From IMG/VR virus record IMGVR_UViG_3300034091_000431: a stretch of DNA of 64,000 bases; one strand, given 5' to 3'. Position 1 is the first letter of the stretch. Every line of letters starts with the position of its first letter. The notes below the pieces were generated by a model, which made no database searches, had not been told where the DNA came from, and saw only the letters and a program-made list of their open reading frames with translations. A program made the translations under genes and the position numbers. The DNA is from an uncultured virus (IMG/VR IMGVR_UViG_3300034091_000431) (taxonomy: Duplodnaviria > Heunggongvirae > Uroviricota > Caudoviricetes). This document shows, in pieces, positions 929-63,338 of this stretch.

Positions 929-1516
929 CTACGACGGCACGCTGCTGGAGATTGCCTGGGTGCCATTCGGCGCGGGCGGCGGCTCTGGATCTCCCCCTTC
1001 ACCGTCGTCCGCATCCGGATCGTAAGCGTTCACGACGGGCGCGGCCTCGTCGGCCTCTTCGAGCTCGCCCACGAAGACCTCGGCCCCCATACTTCTCTGG
1101 ACGAGGCGTACGGACCAGAACGGGAGCTCGTCGATGATGCAGGCCTGCATGTCGTTCGTGAGCGAAAAAATGTAGACGATCTCACCGAGGCGGTGCATCC
1201 GGACGATCTTGAGCCGACTCTCTAGGGGGTGCGGCTTACCGAGAGCCCAGTACATCGGCGGCGTCTCCGCGATATCGGCCTCCACCGAAGGCGGAGGCGT
1301 AGGTGCCGGGATGTAGATCGGCCCCTGACAGTGCGGGCACTTCGCCTGCTGTTGCAGTTGCTGCGAAGGAGGCGACGGAGGCGGCTTCGGCTTCGCCTCC
1401 GTCGGGAAGATTGGATCGGAGACCACGACCGTGACGATCGGGTAGTTGAAGTCCGGTTCCGGCAGCTCGATCTGAGCGGCGGCAGCAGCGGCGGTGACGG
1501 CAGCGGGCATAGTCAT
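929..1516 (-). CDS. hypothetical protein (Pro-rich, CPHC motif)
   Basis: ORF 929..1630; likely start MTMPAA at 1516 after GGAGA; abuts the downstream gene. Confidence 0.65.
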   Translation of the reverse strand: MTMPAAVTAAAAAAQIELPEPDFNYPIVTVVVSDPIFPTEAKPKPPPSPPSQQLQQQAKCPHCQGPIYIPAPTPPPSVEADIAETPPMYWALGKPHPLESRLKIVRMHRLGEIVYIFSLTNDMQACIIDELPFWSVRLVQRSMGAEVFVGELEEADEAAPVVNAYDPDADDGEGGDPEPPPAPNGTQAISSSVPS

Positions 1517-1577
1517 GCTGTTTCTCTCCAGGGAAAGTTGGTCTTGGCGAACTCGCCGAAGTAGTGGAGGTCTGCGA

Positions 1578-2192
1578 TCACAGCTTGCCGTCCTCCGCAA
1601 AGGAGTAGAAGCTTGGACGCTCTGCGTCACCTCCGGTAATTATATGATCTATAAAGTCAATTCCGACAGTCTCAAAAGCCTCTACGAAGGCCTTGGTTGT
1701 TTCCTTGTCGGCCTGAGACGGCTTTGCTTCGATGCCGGAGGGGTGGCAATGAAAAATAATTCCAGCGGAAGCCCCATCCATGATCGCCGCATGAAGGGTT
1801 GGGATCATGGGTGCCATCACGGCCGCCGACTCCCCCCGGCCCGTGATGAACATCTTTCTGTACCGCAGGTGTAGGTCGAGGGTCATGACACCGAAGACCT
1901 CGTACGGTTCATCGCCGATGGCCTCCTCGATGATGCGGAACGCTTTCTTGGGATCGTTGAGTGGTCCGATCTCGTCTGCCAAAGCGTTGCAAGCAGCAGC
2001 AGGTTCCGGGTCTTTCTCGATCCGAAAAGCCGGTCGACATAGCGCCCCCCTGACAGTTCTGAGTTCGATCGGCTCGATCTCTCGTTTTCGAGACCGACGA
2101 GACGGCCGACGCTCGGCGAGCACACGTCCGCCCTGCGGGGCTTCACGACAGCCGCAGCTCGACTCACCGAAATTTCTCGAGAGAGGATTCAT
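1578..2192 (-). CDS. RadC-like JAB/MPN domain protein
   Basis: HCHPSG-x-PSQAD and FIDHII motifs, plus upstream EVFGVMTLD segment typical of RadC/JAB. Confidence 0.85.
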   Translation of the reverse strand: MNPLSRNFGESSCGCREAPQGGRVLAERRPSRRSRKREIEPIELRTVRGALCRPAFRIEKDPEPAAACNALADEIGPLNDPKKAFRIIEEAIGDEPYEVFGVMTLDLHLRYRKMFITGRGESAAVMAPMIPTLHAAIMDGASAGIIFHCHPSGIEAKPSQADKETTKAFVEAFETVGIDFIDHIITGGDAERPSFYSFAEDGKL

Positions 2193-2202
2193 GCCCAGCA
2201 TT

Positions 2203-2538
2203 CTACCCCGGCAGCGCGAATTTGCCGTCCTCGGCGGGCTTGAGGGGCTTGCCGCCGACCGAGAGTCGGTCGAGAGGCAGATCCTCGACGACCGCGAGGA
2301 TGTCGTCTTCCGCCATGATGAGCTTGTGGTAGCCGCCGCGGAGGAAGATGTTGTTGCTCTTGTAGGGCATGACGACGTCGCCGACCTTGTAGCCCTTCAC
2401 ATCCGGGCCGACCGCCTCGATCAGGATGAAGATCGAAGCCTTCATTCTGTCCTGATCGGGCAGGATGATCCCGCTCGCAGCCACGGTGATCTCGACCTGG
2501 GTACCGAGGATCTGGTTTCTCTTGGGAACGATCTTCAC
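2203..2538 (-). CDS. GroES/Cpn10-like co-chaperonin
   Basis: GTG start overlapping the upstream stop; KIVPKRNQIL...SGIILPD...AVGPDVKGYKVGDVV...EDDILAVVE follows the Cpn10 pattern. Confidence 0.8.
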   Translation of the reverse strand: MKIVPKRNQILGTQVEITVAASGIILPDQDRMKASIFILIEAVGPDVKGYKVGDVVMPYKSNNIFLRGGYHKLIMAEDDILAVVEDLPLDRLSVGGKPLKPAEDGKFALPG

Positions 2539-2990
2539 GGGGTCTTCTCCTTCTCCGGCAGCGCCGGCACCTTCTCTGGCGGCACCGTCACCGCGCTTCC
2601 TCGAATCGCCTCGAGTTCCGCCTGCGCCATCCCGAGCTCCGCGATCACCTCGCTGAAATGCTCCCGAGACGGCGCGAAATACGGCTGCTTGGCCAGTTGT
2701 CGAGCATCGATCGGCGCGAACTGCCTCGCAGCGTTCAGGATGACGAGGGCGCTCATCCGGATCTCGCGGTCCGGGCACTCGGGCAGGCACATGGCGGTTT
2801 CGTGATCCTTCGCGGGACACTCCGGAGCGTGCTTGCACGCCTCCTCGATCGACTCCGCCTGCTTGAGAGCGATGTCCCAGGCGTACTTTGAACGCCAGAG
2901 AGCCAGCTTCAGGGCGTTCCAGTGCCCCACCTTGATCTTGACTTCCTTGTCGTCGGGGGACTCCCAACCGCCCATCTTCACGTAGTCCAT
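2535..2990 (-). CDS. hypothetical protein (Cys/His cluster)
   Basis: Start MDYVKMGG at 2990; coupled to neighbours on both sides. Confidence 0.6.
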   Translation of the reverse strand: MDYVKMGGWESPDDKEVKIKVGHWNALKLALWRSKYAWDIALKQAESIEEACKHAPECPAKDHETAMCLPECPDREIRMSALVILNAARQFAPIDARQLAKQPYFAPSREHFSEVIAELGMAQAELEAIRGSAVTVPPEKVPALPEKEKTP

Positions 2991-3187
2991 CAGGTGAGTC
3001 TCCCGTCCGGCTCTTTTATCCGGATGAACCCTTCTGCCGGCTGCCTCGTAGCTGCTTGACAGAGAATTGTCCGCATCCAGACCGATCGACTGACGCCACA
3101 ACGCTTTGCTCGCGCCTCGATGTCACGAACCTGATCGGCCGTGAACTTGAGCGAAACCACTCGGTCCTTGTGCGGCAGTGCTGCCAT
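2990..3187 (-). CDS. ribbon-helix-helix DNA-binding protein
   Basis: VVSLKFTADQVRDIEARAKRCGVSRSVWMR, an RHH pattern. Confidence 0.7.
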   Translation of the reverse strand: MAALPHKDRVVSLKFTADQVRDIEARAKRCGVSRSVWMRTILCQAATRQPAEGFIRIKEPDGRLT

Positions 3188-3283
3188 AAAGAGGTAATCC
3201 CCGGGGATGCCGTAGGGACTCTGCACGGCATACTGCGGGAAGTCGGATAGACCTGTCAAGCTCGGTCCGGTAGACTCTTCATC

Positions 3284-3703
3284 GTGCAGTTCGGCGCCGA
3301 CTCAAGTCTTGCAGCGCAGTGCGCTCAGGTGCCGACTCCGGACGGCTGGCGGCCTTGGGCAGATCTTGATGGGAACGTACCCGACGCTCTCGCCAAACGC
3401 GCCGCCGCTCTCGCCTCCGACCAAAGCCTGCCACTCGGGACGACCGAGAGTTTTCCGCTGCCCGGCGTCATCACGCTTATCCGGGTCGAACCGCGCGTTT
3501 GGGGCAAGGACGACAAGGGAAACCTCGTGCAGGGCTGCTTTCGAAGCGGCAGTGTCTATCTCCCATATGCCTCTGCCACGGGCGCGGGTATCCGACCGCC
3601 GCAGGTAGACCCCTGGTCGAGGACTGCAACCGTTCTGACCGTGGCAAGTCTTTCGGTCGGGACCGTCGCGACCCTCGTATCGCTGCACCGAGGTGCAAAA
3701 TGA
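3284..3703 (+). CDS. hypothetical protein with C-terminal hydrophobic anchor
   Basis: ORF track; C-terminal VLTVASLSVGTVATLVSL; first gene of a coupled operon. Confidence 0.65.
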   Translation: MQFGADSSLAAQCAQVPTPDGWRPWADLDGNVPDALAKRAAALASDQSLPLGTTESFPLPGVITLIRVEPRVWGKDDKGNLVQGCFRSGSVYLPYASATGAGIRPPQVDPWSRTATVLTVASLSVGTVATLVSLHRGAK

Positions 3704-3888
3704 GCGAACGTATCTGCAAAGACGGCAAAGAGGTCGTCGGCTTCGGCGATGGAACCGTTTCAGCGCCGCACATGGTTCGGCAGCCCTCGCCGTGGGCGGT
3801 CGCGATCACTACCAGCATCGTCGGTGCCGCGGTAGGATGGGTGATAGAAGAAGTCGCGACCCACGTTCGCGGAAGGAGACGCACATGA
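3700..3888 (+). CDS. small membrane protein with variant leader (ICKDGKEVVGFGD)
   Basis: ATGA overlap with the upstream stop; hydrophobic WAVAITTSIVGAAVGWVI. Confidence 0.7.
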   Translation: MSERICKDGKEVVGFGDGTVSAPHMVRQPSPWAVAITTSIVGAAVGWVIEEVATHVRGRRRT

Positions 3889-4028
3889 TTCGTCGTAACG
3901 GTCAACCGGTCCCCGGTTTCGCGCTCGGCCAGGTCACCGTCGATGGGCCCTCCATCGTCCACACGGCCGTCGGGATCGGCGTCATTGTGCTCCTCATCGG
4001 GGGCGTACTGTATTTCGTCCGACGCTAA
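3885..4028 (+). CDS. small membrane protein, GFALG-leader family
   Basis: MIRRNGQPVPGFALGQ...VLLIGGVLYFVRR; AAGGAG RBS; ATGA overlap. Confidence 0.75.
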   Translation: MIRRNGQPVPGFALGQVTVDGPSIVHTAVGIGVIVLLIGGVLYFVRR

Positions 4029-4041
4029 AAGGAGGACGCAC

Positions 4042-4197
4042 GTGAAGAGGGTGTACGACAGATACTACGAGGTCCGGTACCCAGACGGGCGACCGCGTCT
4101 CTGGACCGTGTCGAGAGACGAAGCGATTCGTTTCTCGGATCTTGCGTTCAAGGCGGAGGGCGTCGCCTGCCTGGTCACCGAAGTGTCCCGAGCATGA
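4042..4197 (+). CDS. small hypothetical protein
   Basis: AGGAGG RBS before GTG 4042; stop overlaps the next ATG. Confidence 0.6.
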   Translation: MKRVYDRYYEVRYPDGRPRLWTVSRDEAIRFSDLAFKAEGVACLVTEVSRA

Positions 4198-4619
4198 TCT
4201 CGCTCAACGGTCGCCAGGTACCCGGCTTCGCGCTCGGAAACATCGTCGCTCCCGATCTGCGCAGTACGAGCGAGGCGGAGCTGACACTCATGCGCGCCGA
4301 CGCGGCGCAGGCCAAGACGATTGCCGACTATAAGACCGTCGGTCAGTTCGGCGCCGAGACTCTGGGTCCCGACATCGACAACGTCGGACCCGCTGAGGTC
4401 ACACAACCCTTCACACACCGCGCGTGGGAGACCAACAAAACGCTCGCGGCGACCACCGACATCGTGGAAGCGAAGAATCTCGTCGATCTCATGCTGATCG
4501 ATTACCAGCAGGCGCTCGCGGCGAGCCGCAAGAAGGAGACGTCCGGAGGGTGGACGTCGTTCTTCGTCCCCTTGGGCGCCCTCGTCCTCATCGGCGGCGT
4601 CTGGTACCTCGTCCGATGA
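4194..4619 (+). CDS. tail-anchored protein, GFALG-leader family
   Basis: MISLNGRQVPGFALGN...SGGWTSFFVPLGALVLIGGVWYLVR. Confidence 0.8.
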   Translation: MISLNGRQVPGFALGNIVAPDLRSTSEAELTLMRADAAQAKTIADYKTVGQFGAETLGPDIDNVGPAEVTQPFTHRAWETNKTLAATTDIVEAKNLVDLMLIDYQQALAASRKKETSGGWTSFFVPLGALVLIGGVWYLVR

Positions 4620-5089
4620 ACCTTCATGGCCGACGGGTGCCCGGGTTCGCGCTTGGAGCGGATCCTCAGCCGAAGGTGTACGACCAGACAACGAAGTCGA
4701 TCGACGCGCGTCCCGGTGAGTCCTTCCTCGTGGCGTTGCCGGGCAACGTGACCACAGGCTACGAGTGGCGTGCGGATGCGCCAGCAGGCGTGATCACAGT
4801 TGCGAAGCCGACCTACGCAGCCGACCCACACCCTGCCGGCAGCGCCGGCTACGGGGGTACGTACACGTTCGCGGTCACCGCGATAGCACTCGGTTCGACA
4901 ACGCTCCATTTCGTGTACGTACGAGCTTGGGAAACCGCCCCGGTCCCCGCGAACGAGCTGAGAATGGAAGTCGCCGTCAGCGATGACGCGACACCGCCAG
5001 TTAGGTATCAGCAGTGGGCAAGAGTCCTCGTCCCAGCCGGTATCCTCGCTCTCGTCGGCATCGGCAGCGTCTGGTACGTTACGAGGTAG
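4616..5089 (+). CDS. chagasin-family (I42) cysteine-protease inhibitor with GFALG leader and C-terminal TM anchor
   Basis: ATG 4616 MNLHGRRVPGFALGA; GESFLVALPGNVTTGYEW, GxGG-x-F and YVRAWE match the chagasin NPTTGY-W / GxGG / RPW loops. Confidence 0.8.
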   Translation: MNLHGRRVPGFALGADPQPKVYDQTTKSIDARPGESFLVALPGNVTTGYEWRADAPAGVITVAKPTYAADPHPAGSAGYGGTYTFAVTAIALGSTTLHFVYVRAWETAPVPANELRMEVAVSDDATPPVRYQQWARVLVPAGILALVGIGSVWYVTR

Positions 5090-5092
5090 CCG

Positions 5093-5683
5093 ATGGAACG
5101 GATCTGCCTCAACGGTCGACAGGTGCCCGGGTTCGCGCTCGGAGACGCATCGTCCGACCCGTGCACGGCTTGGCCGTTCCAGGGTCTCTTCGGCTACACG
5201 ACCGAGCTCCCGGTCCTGAAGGCTGAGGACGAACAGAGCGACCAGTACATGAAGAGCCTGAACACGGCTCTCACCGGACCGTGCCCGTCGATGCGCGACG
5301 TGGACAAGGTTGCTTGGACGGCGCTCTACCAGAAGTGGCAGACCCTTCACGCAGCCATCCAGGACTTCCTCTCGAGCCCTAGGCTCACCGGCATCTGGCA
5401 GGGCTACAAGGTCATGGCCGCCGAGTACATGTGCCGGATCGCTGCCATCCGCAAGCAGGCCGACGACTACCAGAGCAAGGGGATCACGCAGTGCGATCCG
5501 AAGACCATCCCGAACGCGCCGCCTCCGCCTGAGCCTCCCCACAAGGACACCGACAAGAAGGATGGCTGGCTCGACACGGTCAAGACCGTAGCCGGCACGA
5601 CAGCGGTCATCGTCGCCGTCGCGGGCGGCGTCTACCTCGTCTACAAGGCGACAGAGTACCTGCCGCCGCCGAAAAAGCGATGA
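5093..5683 (+). CDS. tail-anchored protein, GFALG-leader family
   Basis: MERICLNGRQVPGFALGD; Pro-rich linker; C-terminal VIVAVAGGVYLVYK. Confidence 0.8.
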   Translation: MERICLNGRQVPGFALGDASSDPCTAWPFQGLFGYTTELPVLKAEDEQSDQYMKSLNTALTGPCPSMRDVDKVAWTALYQKWQTLHAAIQDFLSSPRLTGIWQGYKVMAAEYMCRIAAIRKQADDYQSKGITQCDPKTIPNAPPPPEPPHKDTDKKDGWLDTVKTVAGTTAVIVAVAGGVYLVYKATEYLPPPKKR

Positions 5684-6186
5684 GCCGAAGCCTCCGCCTC
5701 GCCCACCTACCCGCAGGCCACTCGCACCTGAGGTTCTCGGGGTACCTCACCGCACCAGTCACCGACCAGCAACTCTCCGAAGCGCTGGGCGTCTACTTCG
5801 TCAACCTCCGGTTGTACCGAGACCGCTCAACCCTCCCACCGGACTGGCCGACGCGCGACGAGGTCGCCGCTCCGGCAGGAAGGACCACGATCTGGGGCGA
5901 AGGCGACGACATCTCCTCGGCGACCGTCCTCGGTGACCCCGAGACGCCGTGGCGCTTGCTCGTCGGTCAGGGCCAGCTGGTGGTCGACAACATCTGGCTC
6001 TACGACGCTGCGGCGGATCCGTGGCCGGCCGGAATGACGCCGTGCCCGACGTGTCCGCCGTGCTTCCAGCAGGCGGTAAGGCCGCCTGTAGCGAGCGAAG
6101 GAGGGCATCCGGTCGCCATCGGTGTAGTTGGAGCTCTACTCGGAGCCGTTCTCGGGGGAGCCGCCGTTCTGGTGTGGAGAGGATAA
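5680..6186 (+). CDS. hypothetical protein with C-terminal Gly-rich TM anchor
   Basis: ORF track; VAIGVVGALLGAVLGGAAVLVWRG. Confidence 0.7.
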   Translation: MSRSLRLAHLPAGHSHLRFSGYLTAPVTDQQLSEALGVYFVNLRLYRDRSTLPPDWPTRDEVAAPAGRTTIWGEGDDISSATVLGDPETPWRLLVGQGQLVVDNIWLYDAAADPWPAGMTPCPTCPPCFQQAVRPPVASEGGHPVAIGVVGALLGAVLGGAAVLVWRG

Positions 6187-6188
6187 AA

Positions 6189-6269
6189 ATGAGCCAGATC
6201 TTCTTGGGCGGAGTCCCCGTTGTTGGATTCGGAGACCACATGGTCTGCGATTCTCCTGAGCAGGACTGA
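6189..6269 (+). CDS. 26-aa peptide consisting almost only of the variant leader (possible truncated remnant)
   Basis: MSQIFLGGVPVVGFGDHMVCDSPEQD; GAGG RBS; resembles the leader at 3700. Confidence 0.45.
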   Translation: MSQIFLGGVPVVGFGDHMVCDSPEQD

Positions 6270-6377
6270 GCGTGCGGGGACGCGTTAGCGCGAGACAACC
6301 GAGCACGATCACAAGGACGAACGCCACGCACAACTCGACAACGCTAGTAACCGTTGCGGGAGCATCCAAGAACGCGC

Positions 6378-6405
6378 TTGACATGATGCCGCATCATGCC
6401 AGGAT
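6378..6405 (+). promoter_or_regulatory. sigma70-like promoter with overlapping palindromic operator
   Basis: TTGACA-16-CAGGAT; perfect inverted repeat CATGATGC-C-GCATCATG at 6382-6398. Confidence 0.65.
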
Positions 6406-6667
6406 GGTCGTCGTGACGCAAGCTGGACCCTTGAAGATGCGCGCGCTATCGCTCGACGCCGCAGGTGAACGCGATCTGGCTCGTAACTCGTGGCTAGCTG
6501 CTGCGAAACTAGAGCTAGAGCGATTAGTTCCGGCCGAAGGTCCGGATTTCCGTAACGATATCGGCGAAGTTATCGCTTGCCTGGCGCAAGCATGCACACC
6601 GATGCCGAAAGATAAAGCACGTGCAGTCGTAGCCAGATTCATGCAGAGCGTGAAGCCTCGCAAATGA
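6404..6667 (+). CDS. hypothetical protein (start uncertain, 6404 or 6413)
   Basis: 3' part of ORF 6272..6667, downstream of the promoter; stop overlaps the next ATG. Confidence 0.5.
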   Translation: MVVVTQAGPLKMRALSLDAAGERDLARNSWLAAAKLELERLVPAEGPDFRNDIGEVIACLAQACTPMPKDKARAVVARFMQSVKPRK

Positions 6668-6834
6668 CCCGCTCCGACCCCCAAGTCACCCGCCTCGCCG
6701 TAGAGGCCGACTGCGACCCACGCACCGCCCTCGCCGTACTCGAGGGGCGCGCCGTACGGCCGCGCATCCGAGAACGGATCGAGAAGGCGGCGAAGAGGCT
6801 CAAGATGAAGCTACCTAAGACGGCCAAGGAGTAA
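6664..6834 (+). CDS. stand-alone LacI-like HTH protein, copy 1
   Basis: Manual translation MTRSDPQVTRLAVEADCDPRTALAVLEGRAVRPRIRERIEKAAKRLKMKLPKTAKE; paralog at 12277. Confidence 0.75.
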   Translation: MTRSDPQVTRLAVEADCDPRTALAVLEGRAVRPRIRERIEKAAKRLKMKLPKTAKE

Positions 6835-6836
6835 GC

Positions 6837-7073
6837 ATGTCAGTAACCCACACGTTCAAGTGCGACTGCTGCGGCAAGACAGCCAAAGACGTCCCGTCCG
6901 GGATGTTGCCCGAAGGGTGGTTCGGACTGGGAGGGAAAGAGGCTCCACACTTCAAGGAGCAGTTGTGCTCCGAAGCGTGTGTTCTCAAAGTTGCTGCCGT
7001 ATACGTGGAGGCTGGATTGAAGACGGACACGCAGTGGTCCACACCGTTCGAAATCAAGTTCTATCGACAATGA
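6837..7073 (+). CDS. small Zn-finger-like protein
   Basis: CDCCG...LCSEAC; AAGGAG RBS. Confidence 0.6.
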   Translation: MSVTHTFKCDCCGKTAKDVPSGMLPEGWFGLGGKEAPHFKEQLCSEACVLKVAAVYVEAGLKTDTQWSTPFEIKFYRQ

Positions 7074-7931
7074 CCACCATCCTCACCCCGGACAAACAGC
7101 GCCTCCTCATCTTCGACGAATTCCGCGAGGACTTCGAACTCCCCAAGTACAAGTTCCCGGAACAAGATGGCCCGGACGTCGTCCTCGCCTCCAGTCAGAT
7201 GTCTTCGGGACCTCGCATTACCGGAAGCCAACTCCGACGCTTTCACCGCCTCGCTGATGGAGACGCAGAGGCAAACGTTGGCATCGAGGAGATCGCGTCC
7301 GTCACGCAGCCGATGTCCTTCTGGAATCGCCTGTTCGGCAAGAAAGACACGAGGGAGACGACCGGTACCATGTCGGTCGAGGAATTCTTCTCGTCCGTAA
7401 AGAACACTGCCGAGGAGCTCCAGATCGTGAAGGAGCGGGCAAAGGGTTACGAGGAGGCGGTGAAAAAACGCTCGCGCGACTGGGCAGCGAGCACTCGTCG
7501 AGCGGCTCGAAGCGGGTCTCAACGCCGTCCGCATGGAGACGCAGCTCGTTGCGATGGGCCTGACCAAGTACCTCAGCGAAGAGAGTCTTGTCTGCTTCTA
7601 CAAGGCGTCGAAGAAGGGTCTGCGCCTCGACTGGGTCGCCAACTTCACGCGAACGATCCCTCCTGAAGTCACGACCAAGAAAGTGCGCGCCGACGAAGTA
7701 GGTGCGTTCGACAACTACGTAGTGCTCCACTACGACCCCGCCGAGAAAGCGTTCTCGGAAACCGAGTGGGAGCAACTTGCCCGAACGAGCAAGGACCCCA
7801 TCCTGTTCGGCCTCATGAAGGGCCGACGCATCCTCTACTTCGTCGGCGACTGGATCGACGAGGTCTGCGACCTCACGCTGGACCAGCTCGCAGACGTCAT
7901 CGGCAAAGATGCCGTAAAGACGATCGCCTGA
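7070..7931 (+). pseudogene. phage-type hypothetical protein split by a +1 frameshift at an A6 run (7463-7468)
   Basis: Removing one A joins MTTILTPD...EAVK to NARATGQRALVERLEAG...METQ...DPILFG...GDWIDEVCDLTL; the span is 861+1 nt. Confidence 0.65.
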
Positions 7932-8037
7932 CAGACGCGGGCCCGCTCGCGTCAAGACACGAGTCAAGCCCACGGGGCTGACGACTCGGCCTGCCGTCAG
8001 CAACCACACCGGCCTGGATGGCCGCAATGCCGGTGGG

Positions 8038-8328
8038 TCAAGCGCAGCCTATCCCAACACGTATCCGTTCCGCCACCCTGTAGAACACGGGATCCATCGA
8101 GAGCGGCTTCGTCACCGGCGAACCCATGCCGTCCAGGTTCATGAACGTGCTGAACTGTTTTTCCCACACCAGACGTACGAGCTCCGCCGACGGCTTTACG
8201 CCGCCATCGATCGCGTCCGCGATTAGCTTGGCCTCGTGATCGTACTCGTCCGGATCGCATCCCAGACGAAGGAGACCTTCGGGATCGAGGTCTACCAACG
8301 CAGTGCGCACTATCTCGAACGTGCTCAT
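8038..8328 (-). CDS. hypothetical protein (DP-x-DEYD-xE motif, DUF1871-like)
   Basis: LDPEGLLRLGCDPDEYDHEAKLI; start at ATG 8328, downstream of the tRNA-like genes. Confidence 0.55.
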   Translation of the reverse strand: MSTFEIVRTALVDLDPEGLLRLGCDPDEYDHEAKLIADAIDGGVKPSAELVRLVWEKQFSTFMNLDGMGSPVTKPLSMDPVFYRVAERIRVGIGCA

Positions 8329-8345
8329 TTCCACCAGCTTACCAG

Positions 8346-8420
8346 AGCGCCTGGCTGGACTCGAACCAGCTACCAACAACATCTACGGTGTTGCTGCTCT
8401 GCCATTTGAGCTACAGGCGC
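8346..8420 (-). tRNA. atypical tRNA, anticodon GTA (Tyr-reading), identity uncertain
   Basis: GCGCCTG/CAGGCGC acceptor, GCTC/GAGC D-stem, CAACA-CCGTAGA-TGTTG anticodon arm, GCTGG-TTCGAGT-CCAGC T-arm; no encoded CCA. Confidence 0.75.
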
Positions 8421-8424
8421 ATCG

Positions 8425-8507
8425 TGGGCCCCCGGGGAATTGAACCACCGGACCTCCCGCGGATCGCAAGCGACGCGCAGGTGCTCTGGCCTCTGAGCTA
8501 GGAGCCC
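8425..8507 (-). ncRNA. tRNA-like RNA with elongated anticodon arm and no canonical 7-nt loop
   Basis: GGGCTCC/GGGGCCC-A acceptor, GCTC/GAGC D-stem, GGTTCAATTCC T-loop; central arm CCTGCG-CG-TCG-CTTG-CGA-TC-CGCGGG. Confidence 0.7.
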
Positions 8508-8513
8508 TCGAAT

Positions 8514-8822
8514 TTAGCGAAGCCTCGGAAGACACGAGACGTATCTCCCTACCACCCCCTTCCTGCCGGGCTTCAAGCCCACGGCGGTCAGCTGGCCGGC
8601 GAACGGCCCGTCGTTTTCGACGACGCGAGAGAACACGACACCGGCGAGCTCCAATCGCGAAGCCTCCGCGAACAGGTGCGCTTCGTCTCTCACGGCCAGG
8701 ACGACGACGTACATCCCGTCCGGATGCGGCTCGATGAGCGACTGGCCGATGGCGTGACCAAGCTGCGCTTCTCGAAAGCCGTCCGGCAGATCGCGCCGAA
8801 CAATCACGTAGTGGCACAGCAC
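8514..8822 (-). CDS. peptidyl-tRNA hydrolase PTH2/PTRHD1-like protein
   Basis: YVIVRRDL...AQLGHA...VVVLAV-x-E...GQLTAVGLKP...LPRL pattern of the PTH2 fold. Confidence 0.75.
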   Translation of the reverse strand: MLCHYVIVRRDLPDGFREAQLGHAIGQSLIEPHPDGMYVVVLAVRDEAHLFAEASRLELAGVVFSRVVENDGPFAGQLTAVGLKPGRKGVVGRYVSCLPRLR

Positions 8823-8897
8823 GTCCGACTGGACGGGTGCGCGGCGCTCAGCCGCAGTCGTGTAGTCGAGAATCGGGAACGGGATCCATCGCGAGTG

Positions 8898-8926
8898 ATG
8901 GTGTGGTCTCCGGCGGAGGCTGTCAA
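8898..8926 (-). promoter_or_regulatory. sigma70-like promoter of the PTH2/tRNA operon
   Basis: TTGACA-17-CACCAT on the minus strand. Confidence 0.55.
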
Positions 8927-8928
8927 GC

Positions 8929-9168
8929 CTACGGCCCTCTTCTCAGATACTTGAACAGCACCCACGGACCGCACACCGCGGCAAAAAGAAGCATCACGAT
9001 CAAAATGCCGCGAGTGTTGCGGTCGTACTCCGCCTGATCATCGGAATCGGTAACGCGGTCTGCAAGATCATCGACCGTCGCACGAACCCTGTCTCGATCG
9101 AGAGCGAGGGGAAACAAGCCTGAGAAGCACCAGTAACCGATCAAGACAGGGACAATCGGAGCCATCAC
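8929..9168 (-). CDS. small two-TM membrane protein
   Basis: Two hydrophobic segments; overlaps the upstream stop. Confidence 0.55.
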   Translation of the reverse strand: MMAPIVPVLIGYWCFSGLFPLALDRDRVRATVDDLADRVTDSDDQAEYDRNTRGILIVMLLFAAVCGPWVLFKYLRRGP

Positions 9169-9398
9169 TTCGCCGGCAGCTGCGGATGCACCGTCGGTTC
9201 ACCCGCCATCGTCCCGGCAGCGAACGCCCCGACCACTGCACCCGCCGCCGCACCGGTCGCCATGGCGTCCGCGACATTCGTGCCGCCGTAGTACTTGCGA
9301 GGCGCGTGCTGAGCGACGACCTTCCCCGCGTACGCGCCGACGACGCCGCCGAAGAGGGCACCTACCGCGCTCCAGAGCCCTGTTTTGGCGTTCGACAT
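9165..9398 (-). CDS. glycine-zipper membrane protein
   Basis: MSNAKTGLWSAVGALFGGVVGAYAG...GAAAGAVVGAFAAG. Confidence 0.65.
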   Translation of the reverse strand: MSNAKTGLWSAVGALFGGVVGAYAGKVVAQHAPRKYYGGTNVADAMATGAAAGAVVGAFAAGTMAGEPTVHPQLPAK

Positions 9399-9519
9399 GA
9401 AGTCAAGCCTACGGTAGGCTTCTTTCACGCGCAAGAAGGGTGTGGTGCGGCGGGAAATCCGCCGCCGGGGTTGCCCCTTTCTAACCCAAGTGAATCCCCT
9501 TCCGGCGCGTATCCGAACC

Positions 9520-9756
9520 ATGGAAACCATCTCCCTCAACGGTCGCCGAGTCCCCGGCTTCGCCCTCGGTCAAGCCTCTGCCGACACGGTCAAGTTCGCG
9601 GTCACCCCCGCCGTCGCCGCCGTCTCGGTAGGCGTCACCGCGGGGCTACTCGCCGCCGTCCTTCATGCTCCCTTGTGGGCTACCCTCGTCACTGGCAGCG
9701 CTGCGGCGCTCGTGACGAAGGTCGGCATCGACAAGGCCGCCGATAAGACGGCCTAA
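9520..9756 (+). CDS. two-TM membrane protein, GFALG-leader family
   Basis: METISLNGRRVPGFALGQ followed by two hydrophobic helices. Confidence 0.75.
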   Translation: METISLNGRRVPGFALGQASADTVKFAVTPAVAAVSVGVTAGLLAAVLHAPLWATLVTGSAAALVTKVGIDKAADKTA

Positions 9757-9908
9757 CGGCGTTTGTCGTAGTCCGCCAGCCCCCGGAATACGCGATCTTC
9801 CCGCTTGAGTACCGCCGCGAAAGCGTGCCGAAACTCCTCGTCCGTCATGTACGCATCCTCGGGCTCCGGCTCGGACTCAATCGCGGTGGTTCTGTCGTTC
9901 TCGTTCAT
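9753..9908 (-). CDS. small hypothetical protein
   Basis: MNENDRTT... after GAGGGG; overlaps the upstream stop. Confidence 0.45.
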   Translation of the reverse strand: MNENDRTTAIESEPEPEDAYMTDEEFRHAFAAVLKREDRVFRGLADYDKRR

Positions 9909-10132
9909 GGTCGCCCCCTCTTCCACCGCCTCCACACCGCATCCGCGCACCACCCGACGCCTGCGCCCAGGACCGCTCCGGGCGGCCCCGCGATAGCGGC
10001 CCCGAGGCCGCACCCGACCGCCGAGAGCACGAAGCCCTCCCTGCCCATGTGCGGCACGGCCGGGGGAGGTGGCGCCTTGATCGGCTCGCGCTTGGCGAGC
10101 TCGAGGATGGGGTCGTCGGGAGGAGTGTTCAC
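9905..10132 (-). CDS. small glycine-zipper membrane protein
   Basis: GCGLGAAIAGPPGAVLGAGVGW followed by a basic tail. Confidence 0.6.
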   Translation of the reverse strand: MNTPPDDPILELAKREPIKAPPPPAVPHMGREGFVLSAVGCGLGAAIAGPPGAVLGAGVGWCADAVWRRWKRGRP

Positions 10133-10274: not shown

Positions 10275-10697
10275 TCAGTTGAGCGTCACCATGTCACTTT
10301 CAGGCGTGCTCGCCGACGTCGTCTCGTACGGCGTCGCGTAGATGACGACCATCACGGGGATCCCCTGGTGCCTCGTGATGACGAGCCACATCGCCTCCGA
10401 CGTGAACGGCAACTTCATGATCGCGTGCGCCGTCCGCTCGGCGAGCGCCCGAGCGATGAGCGGTAAGGGCTTGCCGTTCAGGCCATCGCGCATCTCCTTG
10501 ACGAACGTCATGCGCGTCTTCGCACTGAAGCCGCTCGGGTCCGACTCGGAAGCCACGAGCACGATGTCGCCCGTCTTGAACGTCTGCCTGGCAGCTCGAT
10601 ACGAGGCGAGGATGTCCGTCGGCGTGAAGAGCTTGCCGACGAGAGCCTTGCAGTCGTCGGTCGTGCCGGGGGCGAACTCGAGACCCGTTTTGAGCAT
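10275..10697 (-). CDS. hypothetical protein
   Basis: 140-aa ORF with GC3-rich codon use; divergent from the helicase. Confidence 0.65.
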   Translation of the reverse strand: MLKTGLEFAPGTTDDCKALVGKLFTPTDILASYRAARQTFKTGDIVLVASESDPSGFSAKTRMTFVKEMRDGLNGKPLPLIARALAERTAHAIMKLPFTSEAMWLVITRHQGIPVMVVIYATPYETTSASTPESDMVTLN

Positions 10698-10772: not shown

Positions 10773-12290
10773 ATGCAAGAGGCTCCCGAACAACAGATCA
10801 CCAGAGAAAAACTGCGCGACTACCAGAAGCGCGCCGTTCGCGACGTCGAGCGAGCCTGGAAGGATCACCGAAGCGTTCTCCTCGTCGAATTCATGGGCGC
10901 TGGCAAGACAGTCGAAGCGGCCGAGATCATCCGCCAGCACGTGGCGCGCGGCGAACGAGTCCTCGTGCTGGCGCATCGAGGAGAAATTCTCAAACAAACC
11001 CGCCGCAAGCTAATCTCGGCCGGCATCCCTGCGGAGTCGATCGGATTCATCTGGGCCGACGGAACTCTCAACGCTGACGCACCGGTGCAAGTAGCGAGTG
11101 TGATGACTCTCGCGCGTCGCAGCGCTCCCGAGAACATCGGACTGTTAGTAGTCGACGAAGCTCACCACTCCCAAGCCAAAAGCTGGCGCAAGATCTTCAG
11201 CTGGTACCCAAACGCAAAGGTGCTCGGTCTGACAGCCACTCCAGAACGCCTAGACGGCAAACCGTTGCGCGAGTTTTTCGAGACCATGGTTCTGGGAGAA
11301 CCATGCGAGAGCCTCATCGAGGCCGGATGGATCACGCAGCCCGAAATCTGGACGCGCGAAGACGCGTGGCGCCCGACAGAGCTGCGAACGAATAAAGGCG
11401 ACTACTCCGCGAATAACGCAGCCAAGGCAATGGGTCGAAGCACGATCGTCGGGGGTATCCCCGCGGCGTACCTGAAGCACGCTCGAGGACTGCCGGCAGT
11501 CGGCTTCGCGGCGACCAAGGATCAGGCTACCACCCTCTGTATTGCCTTCTGCGCAAAAGGCGTCGCCAGCGAGACCTTGTTCGACAGTCACGACGAAAAG
11601 CAACGGGAGGCGATCCTGAAAGGCCTGTCGTCAGGGAAAACATCAGTCATCTGGACGTGCGACGTCATCAGCGAAGGGTGGGACTTTCCGAGCGCGAGAT
11701 GCGTCATCATGGCGCGCCCGACCGCAAGCGTTGCGAGGTACATGCAGTGGAGTGGTCGCTGTATGCGCCCCGGCAGTCGGTCAATCATCCTGGACCATGC
11801 GGGAAACTACGCCGTCCACGGACCTCCGTGGGAGGATAGGGAGTGGTCACTCGACGGACGTCCGCCTCCCACAAAAATGATCGCTCAGGTAGATGCAACT
11901 GGAGGGGTCTCGTTTCTGGAACCGATCGAGGTAGCAGGACGACTCGTTCGGGCCGACATCGCTCGGAGGCAGACGGTGTGTGCAGGATGGAATGGACCGT
12001 GTCCTAAAAATAAGAAACCGCCAAAAGGTGCATTCGACCCTAGCACCATTAGAAAAAGACATGACCGACCATGGAGATGTATCGGCTGCGGGTCGCGCAT
12101 GGCGATAGACTCTATGACCCCAGAAGAACTAAGCGAACGATCTCGAAAACCGAGTAAAGTCAAGACTTCCGATGAACTGAAAGAAATAGGCCGTACTTTG
12201 GCAAAATCGCGCACCAAAATGACTCAACAACAGCGAAGCGAAGCCTGTCGCAAGGCGTGGATCACGAGGCACAAAAATGACCCGAAGTGA
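10773..12290 (+). CDS. SF2 DEAH-type helicase with C-terminal Cys-rich/basic repeat extension
   Basis: GAGKT, LVLAHR, VVDEAHH, LTATPERLDG, ISEGWDFP, QWSGRCMR. Confidence 0.9.
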   Translation: MQEAPEQQITREKLRDYQKRAVRDVERAWKDHRSVLLVEFMGAGKTVEAAEIIRQHVARGERVLVLAHRGEILKQTRRKLISAGIPAESIGFIWADGTLNADAPVQVASVMTLARRSAPENIGLLVVDEAHHSQAKSWRKIFSWYPNAKVLGLTATPERLDGKPLREFFETMVLGEPCESLIEAGWITQPEIWTREDAWRPTELRTNKGDYSANNAAKAMGRSTIVGGIPAAYLKHARGLPAVGFAATKDQATTLCIAFCAKGVASETLFDSHDEKQREAILKGLSSGKTSVIWTCDVISEGWDFPSARCVIMARPTASVARYMQWSGRCMRPGSRSIILDHAGNYAVHGPPWEDREWSLDGRPPPTKMIAQVDATGGVSFLEPIEVAGRLVRADIARRQTVCAGWNGPCPKNKKPPKGAFDPSTIRKRHDRPWRCIGCGSRMAIDSMTPEELSERSRKPSKVKTSDELKEIGRTLAKSRTKMTQQQRSEACRKAWITRHKNDPK

Positions 12291-12441
12291 CCCCACCGTC
12301 CTCCGCCTAGCCGCCGAAGCCGACTGCGACCCTCGCAGCGCTCTCGCCGTGCTCGAAGGAAAAACCGTTCGTCAGCGCGTGCAGGCGCGCATCGAGGCTG
12401 CCGCCAAACGGCTCAGGATGAAGCTGCCGAAGTCTTTCTAG
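12277..12441 (+). CDS. stand-alone LacI-like HTH protein, copy 2
   Basis: Manual translation MTRSDPTVLRLAAEADCDPRSALAVLEGKTVRQRVQARIEAAAKRLRMKLPKSF. Confidence 0.75.
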   Translation: MTRSDPTVLRLAAEADCDPRSALAVLEGKTVRQRVQARIEAAAKRLRMKLPKSF

Positions 12442-12743
12442 GGATCTGTAGTCGGTCGCCTCACCCATCCCGCACGCTCGCAGGGAGCATTACACGCCTG
12501 AATGGTCCCCCCTTCGAACATGCAGGCCAGCCAAGGGTCTTTTCCTGTCGCGAGCTCGGCGGCGACCGCGTCGCTGCTGCCAGGAGCAAGGCAGCCCGAG
12601 TCTTCCAGCTCCACTGCGACTTGATCCGCCGTGAGCGGCGCCGCCGCGGGCTTGCACGCCAGCACGCACACCGCTCCGATCGAACCGGCGACGATGAGGA
12701 GCGCGATCGCCCCGAAGACGAAGTCCTTCACGACTTCGGCCAT
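12438..12743 (-). CDS. membrane/lipoprotein-like Cys-rich protein
   Basis: N-terminal hydrophobic stretch ending VLAC; several Cys. Confidence 0.55.
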   Translation of the reverse strand: MAEVVKDFVFGAIALLIVAGSIGAVCVLACKPAAAPLTADQVAVELEDSGCLAPGSSDAVAAELATGKDPWLACMFEGGTIQACNAPCERAGWVRRPTTDP

Positions 12744-14026
12744 CCTGCCGTCAGACCCGCCGTCACGGCTGCGATGGCGTCCGACTGGCGCTGAAGAGGG
12801 TCACCGGCCTGAATTCCTTGCGCAGCCCACGCGAGCGCCTGAGCCAGCGTCGGAACCGTTCCGGGAGCTCCCGGCGGTACCGGAGGCGGCGGAGTCGCCG
12901 CAGCGCCTGTCGCCCACGCCGCGACGGCGTCGATGAACCCCGCACCGTTCGGTGAGCCGAGCCCCGTCGCCGGATCCCACCCGGGGGTCGCAGGACTCCC
13001 GTCCGAACCGTTGATGATGTCGTTGCATGCGGTCGCCGATGCGAAGTAAACCGACAGTGCTGTCACGCCGCTACCGGCCGCCTTCGCGACGCCCTTCGCG
13101 ACCGCGATGAGAGCGGCCGTGAACGGCGAAGACGCCGACGTACCGCCGACGACCGTCCAGGAACCGTTGGCGGACATCTGCCAACCGCTGTTCGGGTCCG
13201 CATTGGCGGAGGTGTCCGGAACCCCTCGTCCGACCGCGCTGCTCGGGATGATCCCGACCTGCCAGGCCGGCACGGCAACGGTCGGGTCGAACCCGCCGCC
13301 CCCACCCTCGTCGCCCGGCTGGCCGTCGCCCCACGCCTCCTCATTCGCGCGGCTGCCGTCCGCGTTGACGAAGAGCTCCGTGCCGCCCACCGCCCAGACG
13401 TTCGGATCCGAGCACGGGTAGTCCGCGCTCGGCGCCGAGGTCCCGTCGTCGATCGAGTTGTCGCCGCTCGCGGCGCAGAAGCACACACCGGCAGCGACGG
13501 CGTCCGCGAACGCTTGCGCGAGGGTGACCCGCTCGGTCGGATCCCACCCGCTGGCGGCCGAGCCCCAGCTCCACGAGCAGACCTCGCAGCCGGCGGCGAC
13601 GAGGTCGTTCGTGACGTCCGTCATCCCTCCCGAAGCGTTCGGACCGAAGCAGATGGTAATGTCGGCCGCCGTGCCGGTGAGCCACCACCAGGTGAAGGCC
13701 ATGGTGGGGATCAGATCCAACATATTCTCAATATTGGAGTCCTGGTCAGACGGGTCGTTTTTCCCACCAGCCACCGTACGCACCGTGATGTTAGGAGCAA
13801 GCAGACCCCAAATGGCCACTGAGTTGTCTATGTCTTGCTGGACAACTCCACCTCCGAGTGAACCGATACCGAGCTTCATGGGCGCAGCGCCGGCGTACTG
13901 GTTTTGACGAAAACCGTACGCGGTCAGGATCTGCGCTGGAGACAGCGTACCAGCGGGAAAATTGACAGCGCTGGAGAGGCGAACACCACGAAGGCGCGGA
14001 TGATGACGCAGGTAATTGTGTTTCAT
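12728..14026 (-). CDS. S53 (sedolisin/kumamolisin-like) serine peptidase, catalytic domain only
   Basis: ENMLD (Glu/Asp), AASGD (oxyanion Asp), RGVPD, GGTSAS (Ser), GWDPATGLGSP Ca-binding motif. Confidence 0.9.
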   Translation of the reverse strand: MKHNYLRHHPRLRGVRLSSAVNFPAGTLSPAQILTAYGFRQNQYAGAAPMKLGIGSLGGGVVQQDIDNSVAIWGLLAPNITVRTVAGGKNDPSDQDSNIENMLDLIPTMAFTWWWLTGTAADITICFGPNASGGMTDVTNDLVAAGCEVCSWSWGSAASGWDPTERVTLAQAFADAVAAGVCFCAASGDNSIDDGTSAPSADYPCSDPNVWAVGGTELFVNADGSRANEEAWGDGQPGDEGGGGGFDPTVAVPAWQVGIIPSSAVGRGVPDTSANADPNSGWQMSANGSWTVVGGTSASSPFTAALIAVAKGVAKAAGSGVTALSVYFASATACNDIINGSDGSPATPGWDPATGLGSPNGAGFIDAVAAWATGAAATPPPPVPPGAPGTVPTLAQALAWAAQGIQAGDPLQRQSDAIAAVTAGLTAGWPKS

Positions 14027-15317: not shown

Positions 15318-15775
15318 GCCACACCTCGACCCAAGGCAAAGAGCCCGATGCCGATGGCGTCCATGACGTTGTGAAGTTGTTTCGCTGGTATGTCTAGGAC
15401 GTCCACAACCTCCTTCTCCTCAGGCGACAACCGGAACCGCACACGCGCCGCGCAATTCTCCTTGGACAGGTTCCCTTTCCACTGGTGCGGGAACACGGTG
15501 CTGACTTCACACGTCGCACGACCAGCGTAGCGACCGGCCAAGAAGGCGAGCGTGATGAGGTCGTTCGGGGGCACCGGGTGCGCCGGATAGATCTGGGGGA
15601 TCTCGATGACCACACGCAGCGCGAGCTCGGTTGGGGGATCGCCGAGGCCGCAGCCGAGGAGCTTCTCATCGAAAAGCGCCCAGCCCGTGTGCGTGCCTGG
15701 GTCGATGGCCAGTAGCACGCTCGTTCGTAGAAGAGGCGTCCCGCGACGCTTCGCGAACGGTTCCACGCGCGTCAA
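15314..15775 (-). CDS. RuvC-like Holliday junction resolvase (RNase H fold)
   Basis: LLAIDPGTHTGWA, VVIE, P-x-WKG, HNVMDAIGIG; directly follows the polymerase. Confidence 0.8.
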   Translation of the reverse strand: MTRVEPFAKRRGTPLLRTSVLLAIDPGTHTGWALFDEKLLGCGLGDPPTELALRVVIEIPQIYPAHPVPPNDLITLAFLAGRYAGRATCEVSTVFPHQWKGNLSKENCAARVRFRLSPEEKEVVDVLDIPAKQLHNVMDAIGIGLFALGRGVA

Positions 15776-30340: not shown

Positions 30341-30587
30341 AAAAGAAACGTCCAGTCCGTCGTCGTCGACACGCGAAGCTCTACAAGACCCTCGGTATCC
30401 CGAAGACCTGGATCGCGGTCCTCGACGAGTACCCGAACCCGCTTGAGGTCCTGCCGATCCTGATGGCGACGCGGAGCATCTCCGTCGCCGAAGAGATGAT
30501 CGACTCGATGGACGCCTTGGCCGACGCGCTTCTCGACGCGATCGGTGACGAGGAGTCGCGGGAGACTGAGGAGCTTGTGAGGCTTCA

Positions 30588-31013
30588 ATGAAGGCGTTGT
30601 CGCTCAGAAATCCGTGGGCGGCGCTCGTCGTCCATTTCGGCAAGCGCATCGAGAACCGCACCTGGAACACCCGCTTCCGCGGGGAGTTTCTCATCCACGC
30701 CGCGAAGGGGATGACCCGCCGCGAGTTCGACGAGGCGTACGAGTTTGCTCGGCCGGTCCTCGGAGGTTCGCTCCCGACGGCGGAACGGTTGCAGTCGATG
30801 CTTCAGTTTGGGGGCATTGTGGGACACGCCCGCCTGGTCGACGTGGTCCCGCCGTGCGCCTCAGCTTTTTGCTCCTGCAAGGCTGCGCTGTCGTTCGGTC
30901 GATCTTGGCACATGCCGGAGCAGTACGGGTTCGTGCTCGAGGACGTCGTCCCGCTCCCCTTCCGGCCCTGCAAGGGTGCGCTCGGGTTCTTCGAGCTCAA
31001 GGAGGCGGCGTGA
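30588..31013 (+). CDS. ASCH domain protein
   Basis: MKALSLRNPWA...GKRIENRTW...RGEFLIHA...GIVG...KGALGFF. Confidence 0.9.
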   Translation: MKALSLRNPWAALVVHFGKRIENRTWNTRFRGEFLIHAAKGMTRREFDEAYEFARPVLGGSLPTAERLQSMLQFGGIVGHARLVDVVPPCASAFCSCKAALSFGRSWHMPEQYGFVLEDVVPLPFRPCKGALGFFELKEAA

Positions 31014-49019: not shown

Positions 49020-49550
49020 TCATGTTGCCTCCAACGCTTCGCTGCCGGTCGCCCGCGCGATTCCTACGAAGAGCACTCCGACGGCGAATCCGCCGATGTG
49101 CGTCCCGAACGACACTTCCCCGCCCCCGCCCGCGAGCGCGTACCAGACCTGGACGAGCACGAACCCGACGATGAACCCCAGGAGCCGAGGTCGGAGAGCC
49201 CCCAGAACCGCCAAAACGCCCAGGATGGCCCCGGAAGCGCCGACCATGGGGTCCAGGGCTGCCGGGTCGACCAGGACGTGAAGAAGCCCTCCGAGGGCTC
49301 CCGCGGCCAGGTAGAGGGCCAGGAAGCGGAGACTGCCGAGCGCCCGTTCGACGACGGCGCCGGCCCAGGCCAGGCACACCATATTCCCGCCAAGGTGGAT
49401 CCAGCCGGCGTGTAAAAACATGCTCCCCAGGAGTCCCTCGGCGGTCCAGTGCGCGGGGACCAGCCCGTAGGTCTCGCAGGTGGGCTCAACGCCCCAGGCG
49501 AGCTCGAGGGCGAAAGCCAGAAGGTTCAGGGCGACGAGGAGGGCGGTCAT
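49020..49550 (-). CDS. rhomboid intramembrane serine protease
   Basis: SMFLHAGWIHLGGNM, VGASGAI (Ser), THIGGF (His). Confidence 0.92.
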   Translation of the reverse strand: MTALLVALNLLAFALELAWGVEPTCETYGLVPAHWTAEGLLGSMFLHAGWIHLGGNMVCLAWAGAVVERALGSLRFLALYLAAGALGGLLHVLVDPAALDPMVGASGAILGVLAVLGALRPRLLGFIVGFVLVQVWYALAGGGGEVSFGTHIGGFAVGVLFVGIARATGSEALEAT

Positions 49551-58222: not shown

Positions 58223-58223
58223 A

Positions 58224-58898
58224 CTAGAACCCCAGCGTAGCCTCGACGATGGCGAGCTCCGTATCGAGCTCCTTTTTCGTGATGCTGGGGTTGTCCCGCC
58301 TGAGCTCCTTGGAGAGCTCGCGCCGGACTTCGGCGGGCCTGTCGACCATCTCCTGCACGAACCGCTTGCGCTCCTCTTCGGTCTTCGGCTTCCTGAACTC
58401 CATGTGTTCTCTCCTCAGCGTATAGTAGTCGGGTCTGTTGAACCGTGTGTAGTCCCAGTTTGGTGGAGCGTACTCGTCGTTGAATGGTGAGACGCTCTCC
58501 ACGACGAAACCGTTTCGCACGTAGAGCTTCACGAGTCCCTCGCCGAAGCACTCAAGGTAGTTTACCCCGTCGTGCTCGACGACGTAGTGAAGGAGGACCT
58601 GCCCCATACCATCCTTCGCTGTGCTGAAGAGTGCCGTGCCTTCGATGCGGCCGTCACCGTGATCTTTTACCGCGATGCCGGCGGTGGCGCTCGAGGACAA
58701 GTAGCGGGCGAGCGTGTCCTCAAGCTCGCGCTGGGAGTAGTGCGAGACGAACGCTCCGTAAGGGTTACTAGGTCCCATGGCGCGTTCGAAGACGTTGTAG
58801 AACTCGTCGGCGTCGACTTCGACGATGCGCGGGTCGTCGGTGGGTTGGCCGATTTCACGGAGTCGGCGACGTCGTTCCCGTGCGCTGAAAGGAGTCAT
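58224..58898 (-). CDS. GNAT-like domain protein with in-frame small C-terminal module
   Basis: ALFS...GMGQVLL...LECFGEGLVKLY-x-GF...YAPPNW; internal RBS and ATG at 58403. Confidence 0.5.
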   Translation of the reverse strand: MTPFSARERRRRLREIGQPTDDPRIVEVDADEFYNVFERAMGPSNPYGAFVSHYSQRELEDTLARYLSSSATAGIAVKDHGDGRIEGTALFSTAKDGMGQVLLHYVVEHDGVNYLECFGEGLVKLYVRNGFVVESVSPFNDEYAPPNWDYTRFNRPDYYTLRREHMEFRKPKTEEERKRFVQEMVDRPAEVRRELSKELRRDNPSITKKELDTELAIVEATLGF

Positions 58899-63000: not shown

Positions 63001-63254
63001 TCAATCCCCCAGAGCCCACCGCTCGTCAGGGTCTGGACGACCCCCTCGATGACGACGTCGGCCTCGGCGTGGACGCCGACGAACGAGAACTCGCCGGCCT
63101 GAAACGCCGCCAGGCGCTCCTCGAAGTCCTCTTGCTCGAGGTACGAGACGTCCGGGTCGGGGTCGTGCTCGACGACCACGCGTACCTGTTCCAGCTTGGC
63201 CGGCGCCCGCCGAGCGGGAGCCTCGACGACGCCCGGGCGGCGCGTAGCACTCAT
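60044..63254 (-). other. six coupled hypothetical genes, mostly acidic with basic termini (60044-60643, 60640-61017, 61014-61883, 61883-62584, 62581-62874, 62862-63254)
   Basis: ORF track; overlapping start and stop codons. Confidence 0.7.
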
Positions 63255-63338
63255 CTTGTACGCGGAGTGTCGCTCAGTTTTAGCGGGGGTGCAACCGTCC
63301 TTGACCGAGACCACAACCGGGACTACATTTTTCACATC

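Follow-up and report, generated by a model that had tools for sequence, protein, structure and literature searches.

Leaders at the start of seven genes

What is a short, shared peptide doing at the start of several otherwise different genes of one virus? The question is raised by a stretch of 64,000 nucleotides from an uncultured virus (IMG/VR IMGVR_UViG_3300034091_000431; hereafter the window), in which seven open reading frames (ORFs), at 3700, 3885, 4194, 4616, 5093, 6189 and 9520, begin with a leader that ends in GFALG or a variant of it. An initial annotation had taken this leader for a portable tag, strictly N-terminal, probably cleaved after its last Gly or bound by an assembly factor. 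The portable tag is supported by our analysis, the strict N-terminal position is not. As to its function we lean, if only just, towards a leader that docks its protein on the assembling particle and whose Gly end is then cut by a candidate enzyme.

All seven leaders and their ORFs were found at the annotated positions. The codon pattern for G-x-x-V-P-G-F-A-L-G matched five times in the window, and not once in any of 100 shuffles. We also used a leader profile of 15 columns, whose 34 seed leaders come from other genomes and none from the window, so that its matches in the window are not circular, while those in the genomes that supplied the seeds partly are. In a six-frame scan of the window it exceeded 8 bits at exactly 7 places, each of them a gene start; its background is 0.33 matches above 14 bits per shuffled proteome, with none above 16 bits. 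Most matches to the bare motif elsewhere are due to chance, lying in off-frames or within cellular genes.

The leader is conserved as protein while its codons vary, as had been proposed: over all seven copies, codons are identical in 66 of 153 pairs of the same residue, against 61 expected. Among the five GFALG copies alone they are more alike (48/88 identical, 30.5 expected), an excess which points to common ancestry and does not need a constraint at the DNA level. A DNA element or promoter was rejected as explanation, since no sigma-70-like site was found in 2900-10000 and synonymous sites are free.

Similarity indeed ends sharply past the final Gly, and the profile columns beyond it show no conservation. 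The related claim that the following cargo is unrelated has to be corrected for the pairs 3885/4194, 4194/4616 and 3885/5093, which have a C-terminal anchor in common; otherwise the cargo differs. Anchor similarity in these three pairs reached z 5.0-6.3, scores that hydrophobic segments inflate, with 0/300 shuffles as high, and only 3 of 28 pairs attain this level. Taken with P0128, a bare leader-plus-anchor protein, the shared anchors make these genes resemble one frame with different inserts. The chagasin domain announced among the cargo was confirmed, in the 4616 product (PF09394, E 5.6e-19). ORF 6189 does carry the leader, but it is a truncated copy of only 26 residues, 18 of 25 identical to P0138, a tail-anchored protein of 73 residues. 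Conversely, gene 3284, with a bare F-G end at its start, had been overlooked; with starts as called, [FY]G stands in the first 6 residues of 13 of its 14 orthologues.

A portable tag in related viruses

To the window we added 25 relatives, which makes 26 records (G011, G015 and G016, among 28 virus records, were excluded; in the low-GC G027, gene calling gave 12 genes only). Profile matches were obtained in 77 proteins from 20 of the 26 records: 60 fall in the first 10 residues, spread over 32 cargo families; the other 17 are internal, some of them in tandem. Twelve of these 17 belong to one core gene with tandem modules just downstream of the capsid block, and GFALG occurs twice in P0123. Among the 6 records without matches, 4 have clear sub-threshold copies and 2 distant ones do not. 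A search of 1.84 billion representatives with the profile gave 18 matches, namely 15 N-terminal, 1 internal tandem and 2 low-complexity repeats.

In relatives as in the window, leader genes are grouped in a variable cassette adjoining a core module. Their products are mostly tail-anchored, with a C-terminal membrane segment in 62/77 leader proteins compared to 414/3182 others, and a basic C-terminal tail in 39 of these 62. The cargo includes peptidoglycan-binding and lectin-like domains. The chagasin cargo of gene 4616, presumably of cellular origin, shares 57% identity over 86 residues with P0125, a protein without leader that shows by eye a lipoprotein-type signal at its place. In P0144 the leader is borne by a soluble-looking domain that lacks an anchor and matches nothing in Pfam. 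The 32 cargo families, a captured chagasin domain and a co-occurring cysteine enzyme (see below) support the view of the leader as a portable, protein-level tag on particle proteins.

Could the leader be no signal at all? The genes would then descend as paralogues from a single small membrane protein, and the leader would be either a structural hairpin that was left over or a copy of a gene start. Shared anchors and empty frames such as P0128 fit this, as does a slightly higher similarity of leaders within genomes (0.53) than between them (0.49; permutation p 0.0015; G009, whose leaders are identical to those of G010, was omitted from these tests). We nevertheless hold it for very unlikely, because the leader is conserved at the protein level with synonymous sites free, and is kept, across 20 records, on soluble cargo and inside the core gene, as well as on the captured chagasin domain.

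Anatomy of the leader and a wider Gly motif

The leader is a module of about 15 residues with the consensus x-E-x-I-x-x-G/N-G-R-P-V-x-G-F-G/A-L-G. Its columns read I/V/L, x, R/L/F, G/N, G (93%), R (68%), P, V (78%), x, G (97%), F (97%), G/A (93%), L/V/D and G (73%), and the residue after the last Gly is A, D, E, Q or N in 44 of 60 leaders. The front half, I-x-x-N/G-G-x-x-V, is probably a beta-hairpin, judging by eye. It is optional: 4 of 10 orthologues of one family keep only the hydrophobic-Gly end, like window gene 3284. In the 3700 family, 5 of the 10 members in relatives exceed the profile threshold and the rest are degenerate; in the 4194 orthologues, G11-F12-A13-L14 is invariant (15/15) and is followed by a gapped, variable spacer.

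The Phe/Leu-Gly end itself recurs in linkers of other particle proteins and in the N-terminal arm of a 444-residue capsid candidate encoded by relatives. The basic arm of this candidate ends in FG in 120 of 120 sequences, in FGLG in 99 and in RRVPFGLG in 32, in a region that is variable and modelled with a low predicted local distance difference test score (pLDDT). Outside membrane segments, G-hydrophobic-G was counted 159 times in 127 particle-core proteins where 84 are expected (1.9-fold), and 73 times in 135 enzymes where 85 are expected (0.86-fold); homologues in these counts are not independent. Five distant relatives have GLG motifs and the enzyme, and no long leader (0/5 loci above 7 bits). 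An optional front half, a back half shared with the capsid arm and GLG in distant relatives together indicate that a wider hydrophobic-Gly motif belongs to the particle module and that the leader is its long, clade-specific form, not the stand-alone system that had been proposed. We tried to read the arms of distant capsid candidates (N-P-x-R-hydrophobic-hydrophobic-G-L-G) as the leader in register, and dropped this, as only 1 of 5 rose above shuffles. In the distant loci L327, L329, L330 and L331, a basic-x-Asn-Pro motif is found repeatedly, both in capsid arms and at the ends of proteins.

Comparison with known export signals

In agreement with the initial annotation, simple rules detected a hydrophobic stretch of Sec type among the first 35 residues in only 3/60 leader proteins, and neither a Tat motif (0/60) nor a lipobox (0/60). 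Class III prepilin signals consist of basic residues followed by G-F. The leader has the same succession, but the hydrophobic helix that should follow is missing in 60/60 leaders: a stretch of some 20 hydrophobic residues directly past G-F was seen in 0/60, and Glu at +5 in 4/60. No known family was recognised either, with no Pfam match at E 10 for 8 N-terminal segments, and no NCBIfam match to the leader in 11 proteins.

There remains a virus-specific export signal, taking cargo across the membrane. In its favour, the chagasin domain carries the leader where its homologue has a lipoprotein-type signal, and basic tails with surface-binding cargo fit an N-out topology. Internal copies in homologues are among the observations that the initial annotation had said would refute it, and they were found for 17 of the 77 matches. 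The internal and tandem copies exclude a strictly N-terminal signal of the export type, and are still compatible with a docking or cleavage motif; moreover, the capsid candidate has the same ending, and no transporter was found among the core families scanned. We regard export as the least probable of the explanations considered.

A candidate enzyme of transglutaminase fold

The co-occurring protease that such a tag invites one to look for has a candidate, a Cys-His-Asp enzyme of transglutaminase fold found in 27 of 28 relatives. Its triad is invariant in 17/17 aligned enzymes (one truncated row was excluded). The best structural match is 3kd4 (Z 12.7, root-mean-square deviation (rmsd) 3.0, 142 residues aligned), and true transglutaminases are among the top neighbours (Z 8.5-9.5). 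By itself, Pfam PF01841 stays below cut-off on the enzyme, and a search of PDB sequences with the enzyme profile returned nothing under E 0.2.

In G002, G006, G007 and G019 (for instance L283 14851-16503), intein-like Hint/LAGLIDADG inserts, with Hint matches below cut-off, sit exactly before the catalytic Cys, a position which suggests an essential active site. The enzyme gene of G024 is split at this very position. The enzyme's own tail bears the Gly motif. In distant relatives (G026 30373-32007; L329, L331) the enzyme continues into a long fused tail with a terminal membrane anchor; in G026, Gly motifs lie at the junction of enzyme and anchor.

An enzyme of this fold might also cut at the Gly and then transfer or cross-link the cargo to capsid or lipid, in the manner of a sortase or transglutaminase. 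The true transglutaminases among its neighbours favour such covalent sorting, and the common C-terminal anchors weakly resemble sorting signals; these anchor matches are below cut-off, however, and the leader has no conserved Gln or Lys acceptor, which makes the idea unlikely. Other peptidases are encoded in the window: a JAB/RadC-like gene (1578-2201) that belongs to the core of the particle-side module (23 records) and is a second candidate peptidase, a subtilase-family peptidase (12728-14026) and a rhomboid protease (49020-49550), the last in 12 records, which may act on tail anchors.

The capsid candidate and the virus group

The 444-residue protein has 390 homologous clusters and was found at 32 viral loci. 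Its model (pLDDT 72.7) shows a beta-sandwich, which matches single jelly-rolls weakly: the best structural match has Z 5.6, none reached E <0.001 in Foldseek, and its features score 0.83 to single jelly-roll coats in Atlas. Nothing indicated a double jelly-roll, and no match was found in annotated phages, Pfam or PHROGs. A predicted complex of capsid candidate, enzyme and leader scored 0.00, with partner pLDDT <50 and unfolded controls, which is not evidence either way.

The window matches L023 (7228/7229 bases) and L028 (identical), both from one contig of 120,782 bases whose ends overlap by about 141 bases, so that the genome is circular and the window represents about half of ~121 kb. The window encodes a DNA polymerase A, primase, helicases and ThyX. 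Past window position 1 the core module runs on, in L023, to an upstream LysM-like gene (by eye), a transglutaminase-like gene (L023 9667-10293) and an Arg-rich gene; the Pfam matches to LysM and peptidoglycan-binding domains lie on a relative's protein, not on the L023 copy. Relative G001 is syntenic with L023 and extends into the capsid candidate. No head, portal, terminase, tail or packaging-ATPase family was found in 71 proteins searched against Pfam (67 of the 153 called in G001) and 29 against PHROGs. We take the virus for a member of an undescribed group of tailless bacterial viruses of 80-125 kb. The peptidoglycan-binding genes indicate a bacterial host; the only further hint is given by two 5.7-kb contigs, from one metagenome-assembled genome titled Candidatus Binatia and possibly misbinned.

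Docking, cleavage or both

If docking is followed by cleavage, the steps could be as follows. The leader would be kept at the cytoplasmic face of a membrane taken from the host, because leader proteins have no export signals. It would dock onto the assembling particle, its front half strengthening the grip. The enzyme would then cleave at the hydrophobic-Gly end, most simply past the last Gly, and release the cargo. New genes would arise by copying the leader-plus-anchor frame and inserting cargo, captured domains included.

The principal rival is binding without cutting, the other alternatives being minor. Leader and capsid arm would insert their Phe-Gly into one and the same pocket of the shell, where they would remain uncleaved and link membrane proteins to the capsid; the enzyme would be employed otherwise. 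A conserved module of 15 residues exceeds what a protease site needs, the motif occurs internally, in tandem and at residues 3-4 of gene 3284, and within it the G-F pair is invariant and the last Gly much less so. A mere binding site explains less well why conservation stops sharply past the Gly, why the front half is dispensable, and why the same ending turns up in the tail of the enzyme itself and, in G026, at its junction with the fused anchor. We judge binding alone possible, though distinctly less probable than docking with cleavage.

Several points weigh against docking followed by cleavage. Both docking and cleavage are inferred. Cleavage at the motif of gene 3284 would take off almost nothing, internal matches are numerous, and 11 of the 77 leader proteins have no membrane segment on our scale. 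By the positive-inside rule, basic tails lie on the cytoplasmic side, which would place the cargo of the 39 proteins outside, at odds with the first step; peptidoglycan-binding and lectin-like cargo fits outside placement too. The transglutaminase fold also spans cross-linkers, amidases and acyltransferases. On the capsid side, the 444-residue protein is only presumed to be the capsid protein, a weak identification (Z <=5.6); its gene is seen in relatives only, the ~50 kb of the window's contig that include its own capsid gene being outside view; and the arms of distant relatives, which also lack the long leader, exceed shuffles in only 1 of 5.

A broader scheme appears rather improbable to us: a modular sorting system of an undescribed group of large, membrane-containing, single-jelly-roll bacterial viruses, in which a portable 15-residue address and a standard tail anchor frame any cargo, and the transglutaminase-fold enzyme reads and cuts the address and possibly joins the cargo covalently to the shell, like a viral sortase.

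Relation to known systems

Proteolytic maturation and cargo-loading tags are textbook matter for tailed phages and adenoviruses. On the best reading, the leader would be a propeptide for loading the particle, cut by the candidate enzyme; it may work like the T4 capsid targeting sequence (CTS) or the arms of adenovirus pVI and pVII, and would belong to neither system. The T4 CTS stands on internal proteins, is removed by gp21, has its targeting and processing determinants in different halves, and is proposed for loading varied proteins (PMC9026906). Both CTS and leader are short N-terminal peptides on divergent cargo. T4 is a tailed phage with an HK97-type capsid, soluble cargo and a CTS of 10 residues, whereas here the leader has 15 residues and a hydrophobic-Gly end, internal copies exist, the cargo is tail-anchored and the candidate enzyme is of the Cys-His-Asp type.

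In adenovirus, the N-terminal peptides of pVI and pVII occupy a common pocket of the capsid before they are cut by AVP (PMC4246237, 10.1101/857581), whose consensus is given in the first as (M/I/L)XGG|X or (M/I/L)XGX|G. Gly-based sites and a cysteine enzyme, both putative here, are common to the two systems. The AVP consensus is met by only 4/60 leaders (0/7 in the window), or 24/60 if Val is allowed at P4; besides, the host is bacterial. As to an adenain-fold protease, the candidate enzyme's best matches are transglutaminase-like, in a comparison made with part of the group's proteins scanned and half of the genome outside view.

LapG, one of the transglutaminase-like cysteine proteases, trims an N-terminus. 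It shares fold (4fgo, Z 8.1, rmsd 4.0, 126 aligned) and triad with the candidate enzyme, which differs in being viral, with no signal peptide seen. The top viral fold match of the capsid candidate is chain 6oj0_T of SPV1 (Portogloboviridae; Z 5.4, rmsd 4.1, 136 aligned), not above background. SPV1 and some other viruses that contain a membrane do without a packaging ATPase; the proteins scanned here likewise yielded none, nor a terminase. In contrast to SPV1, the host is bacterial and the candidate has large insertions; the SPV1 genome is 4-6 times smaller. Our literature search, which misses most subscription journals, turned up neither such a tag nor a maturation enzyme of transglutaminase fold for tailless bacterial viruses; the part of PMC5894146 available mentions neither transglutaminase nor protease in its text, and its supplements could hold related contigs.

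The window's set is unusually clean, with five near-identical leaders, different cargo and an enzyme gene on the same contig, so that the proposal lends itself to co-expression tests that need no cultured virus. Should it hold, it would add a new protease specificity; particle proteins could be recognised in a virus group that is widespread and unclassified, and the fast turnover of surface proteins would have a mechanism.

The cassette and its surroundings

Table 1. Genes of the leader cassette and its borders (window coordinates)
Position	Strand	Feature	Basis
929..3187	-	Start of divergent conserved core module, including JAB/RadC-like gene	
3284..3703	+	First cassette gene, 139 residues, tail-anchored, bare F-G end only	Gene call
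3700..3888	+	62-residue membrane protein, short-form leader ending GFG (3700-3747), basic tail	
3885..4028	+	47-residue protein: leader (3885-3929), short spacer, C-terminal anchor; almost empty leader-plus-anchor frame	
4042..4197	+	51-residue leaderless gene within the cassette, only in some close relatives	
4194..4619	+	141-residue protein: leader (4194-4238), unknown domain, C-terminal anchor	
4616..5089	+	157-residue protein: leader (4616-4657), chagasin (I42) domain, C-terminal anchor	PF09394
5093..5683	+	196-residue protein: leader (5093-5143), unknown domain, Pro linker, C-terminal anchor, basic tail	
5680..6186	+	168-residue tail-anchored cassette protein without leader	
6189..6269	+	Truncated 26-residue remnant: short-form leader (6189-6233), anchor lost	
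9520..9756	+	78-residue hydrophobic protein, leader (9520-9570)	
10275..10697	-	Conserved gene (21 records), far-side boundary of the variable leader cassette in most relatives	

Elsewhere in the window, two overlapping ORFs in different frames at 7070-7931 resemble one gene frameshifted near an A run at ~7465. A tRNA-Tyr gene lies in the variable region (8345-8420, minus strand), and positions 6664-6834 and 12277-12441 encode paralogous small proteins of 54-56 residues with near-identical sequence. The DNA polymerase A gene (15772-18684) is split by a long intein-like insert, seen by eye, into two Pfam stretches. Finally, window 58000-63400 and L023 10533-13330 encode proteins with repeats of Glu-Ala followed by Arg/Lys runs, possibly a second motif, of DNA-binding core proteins.

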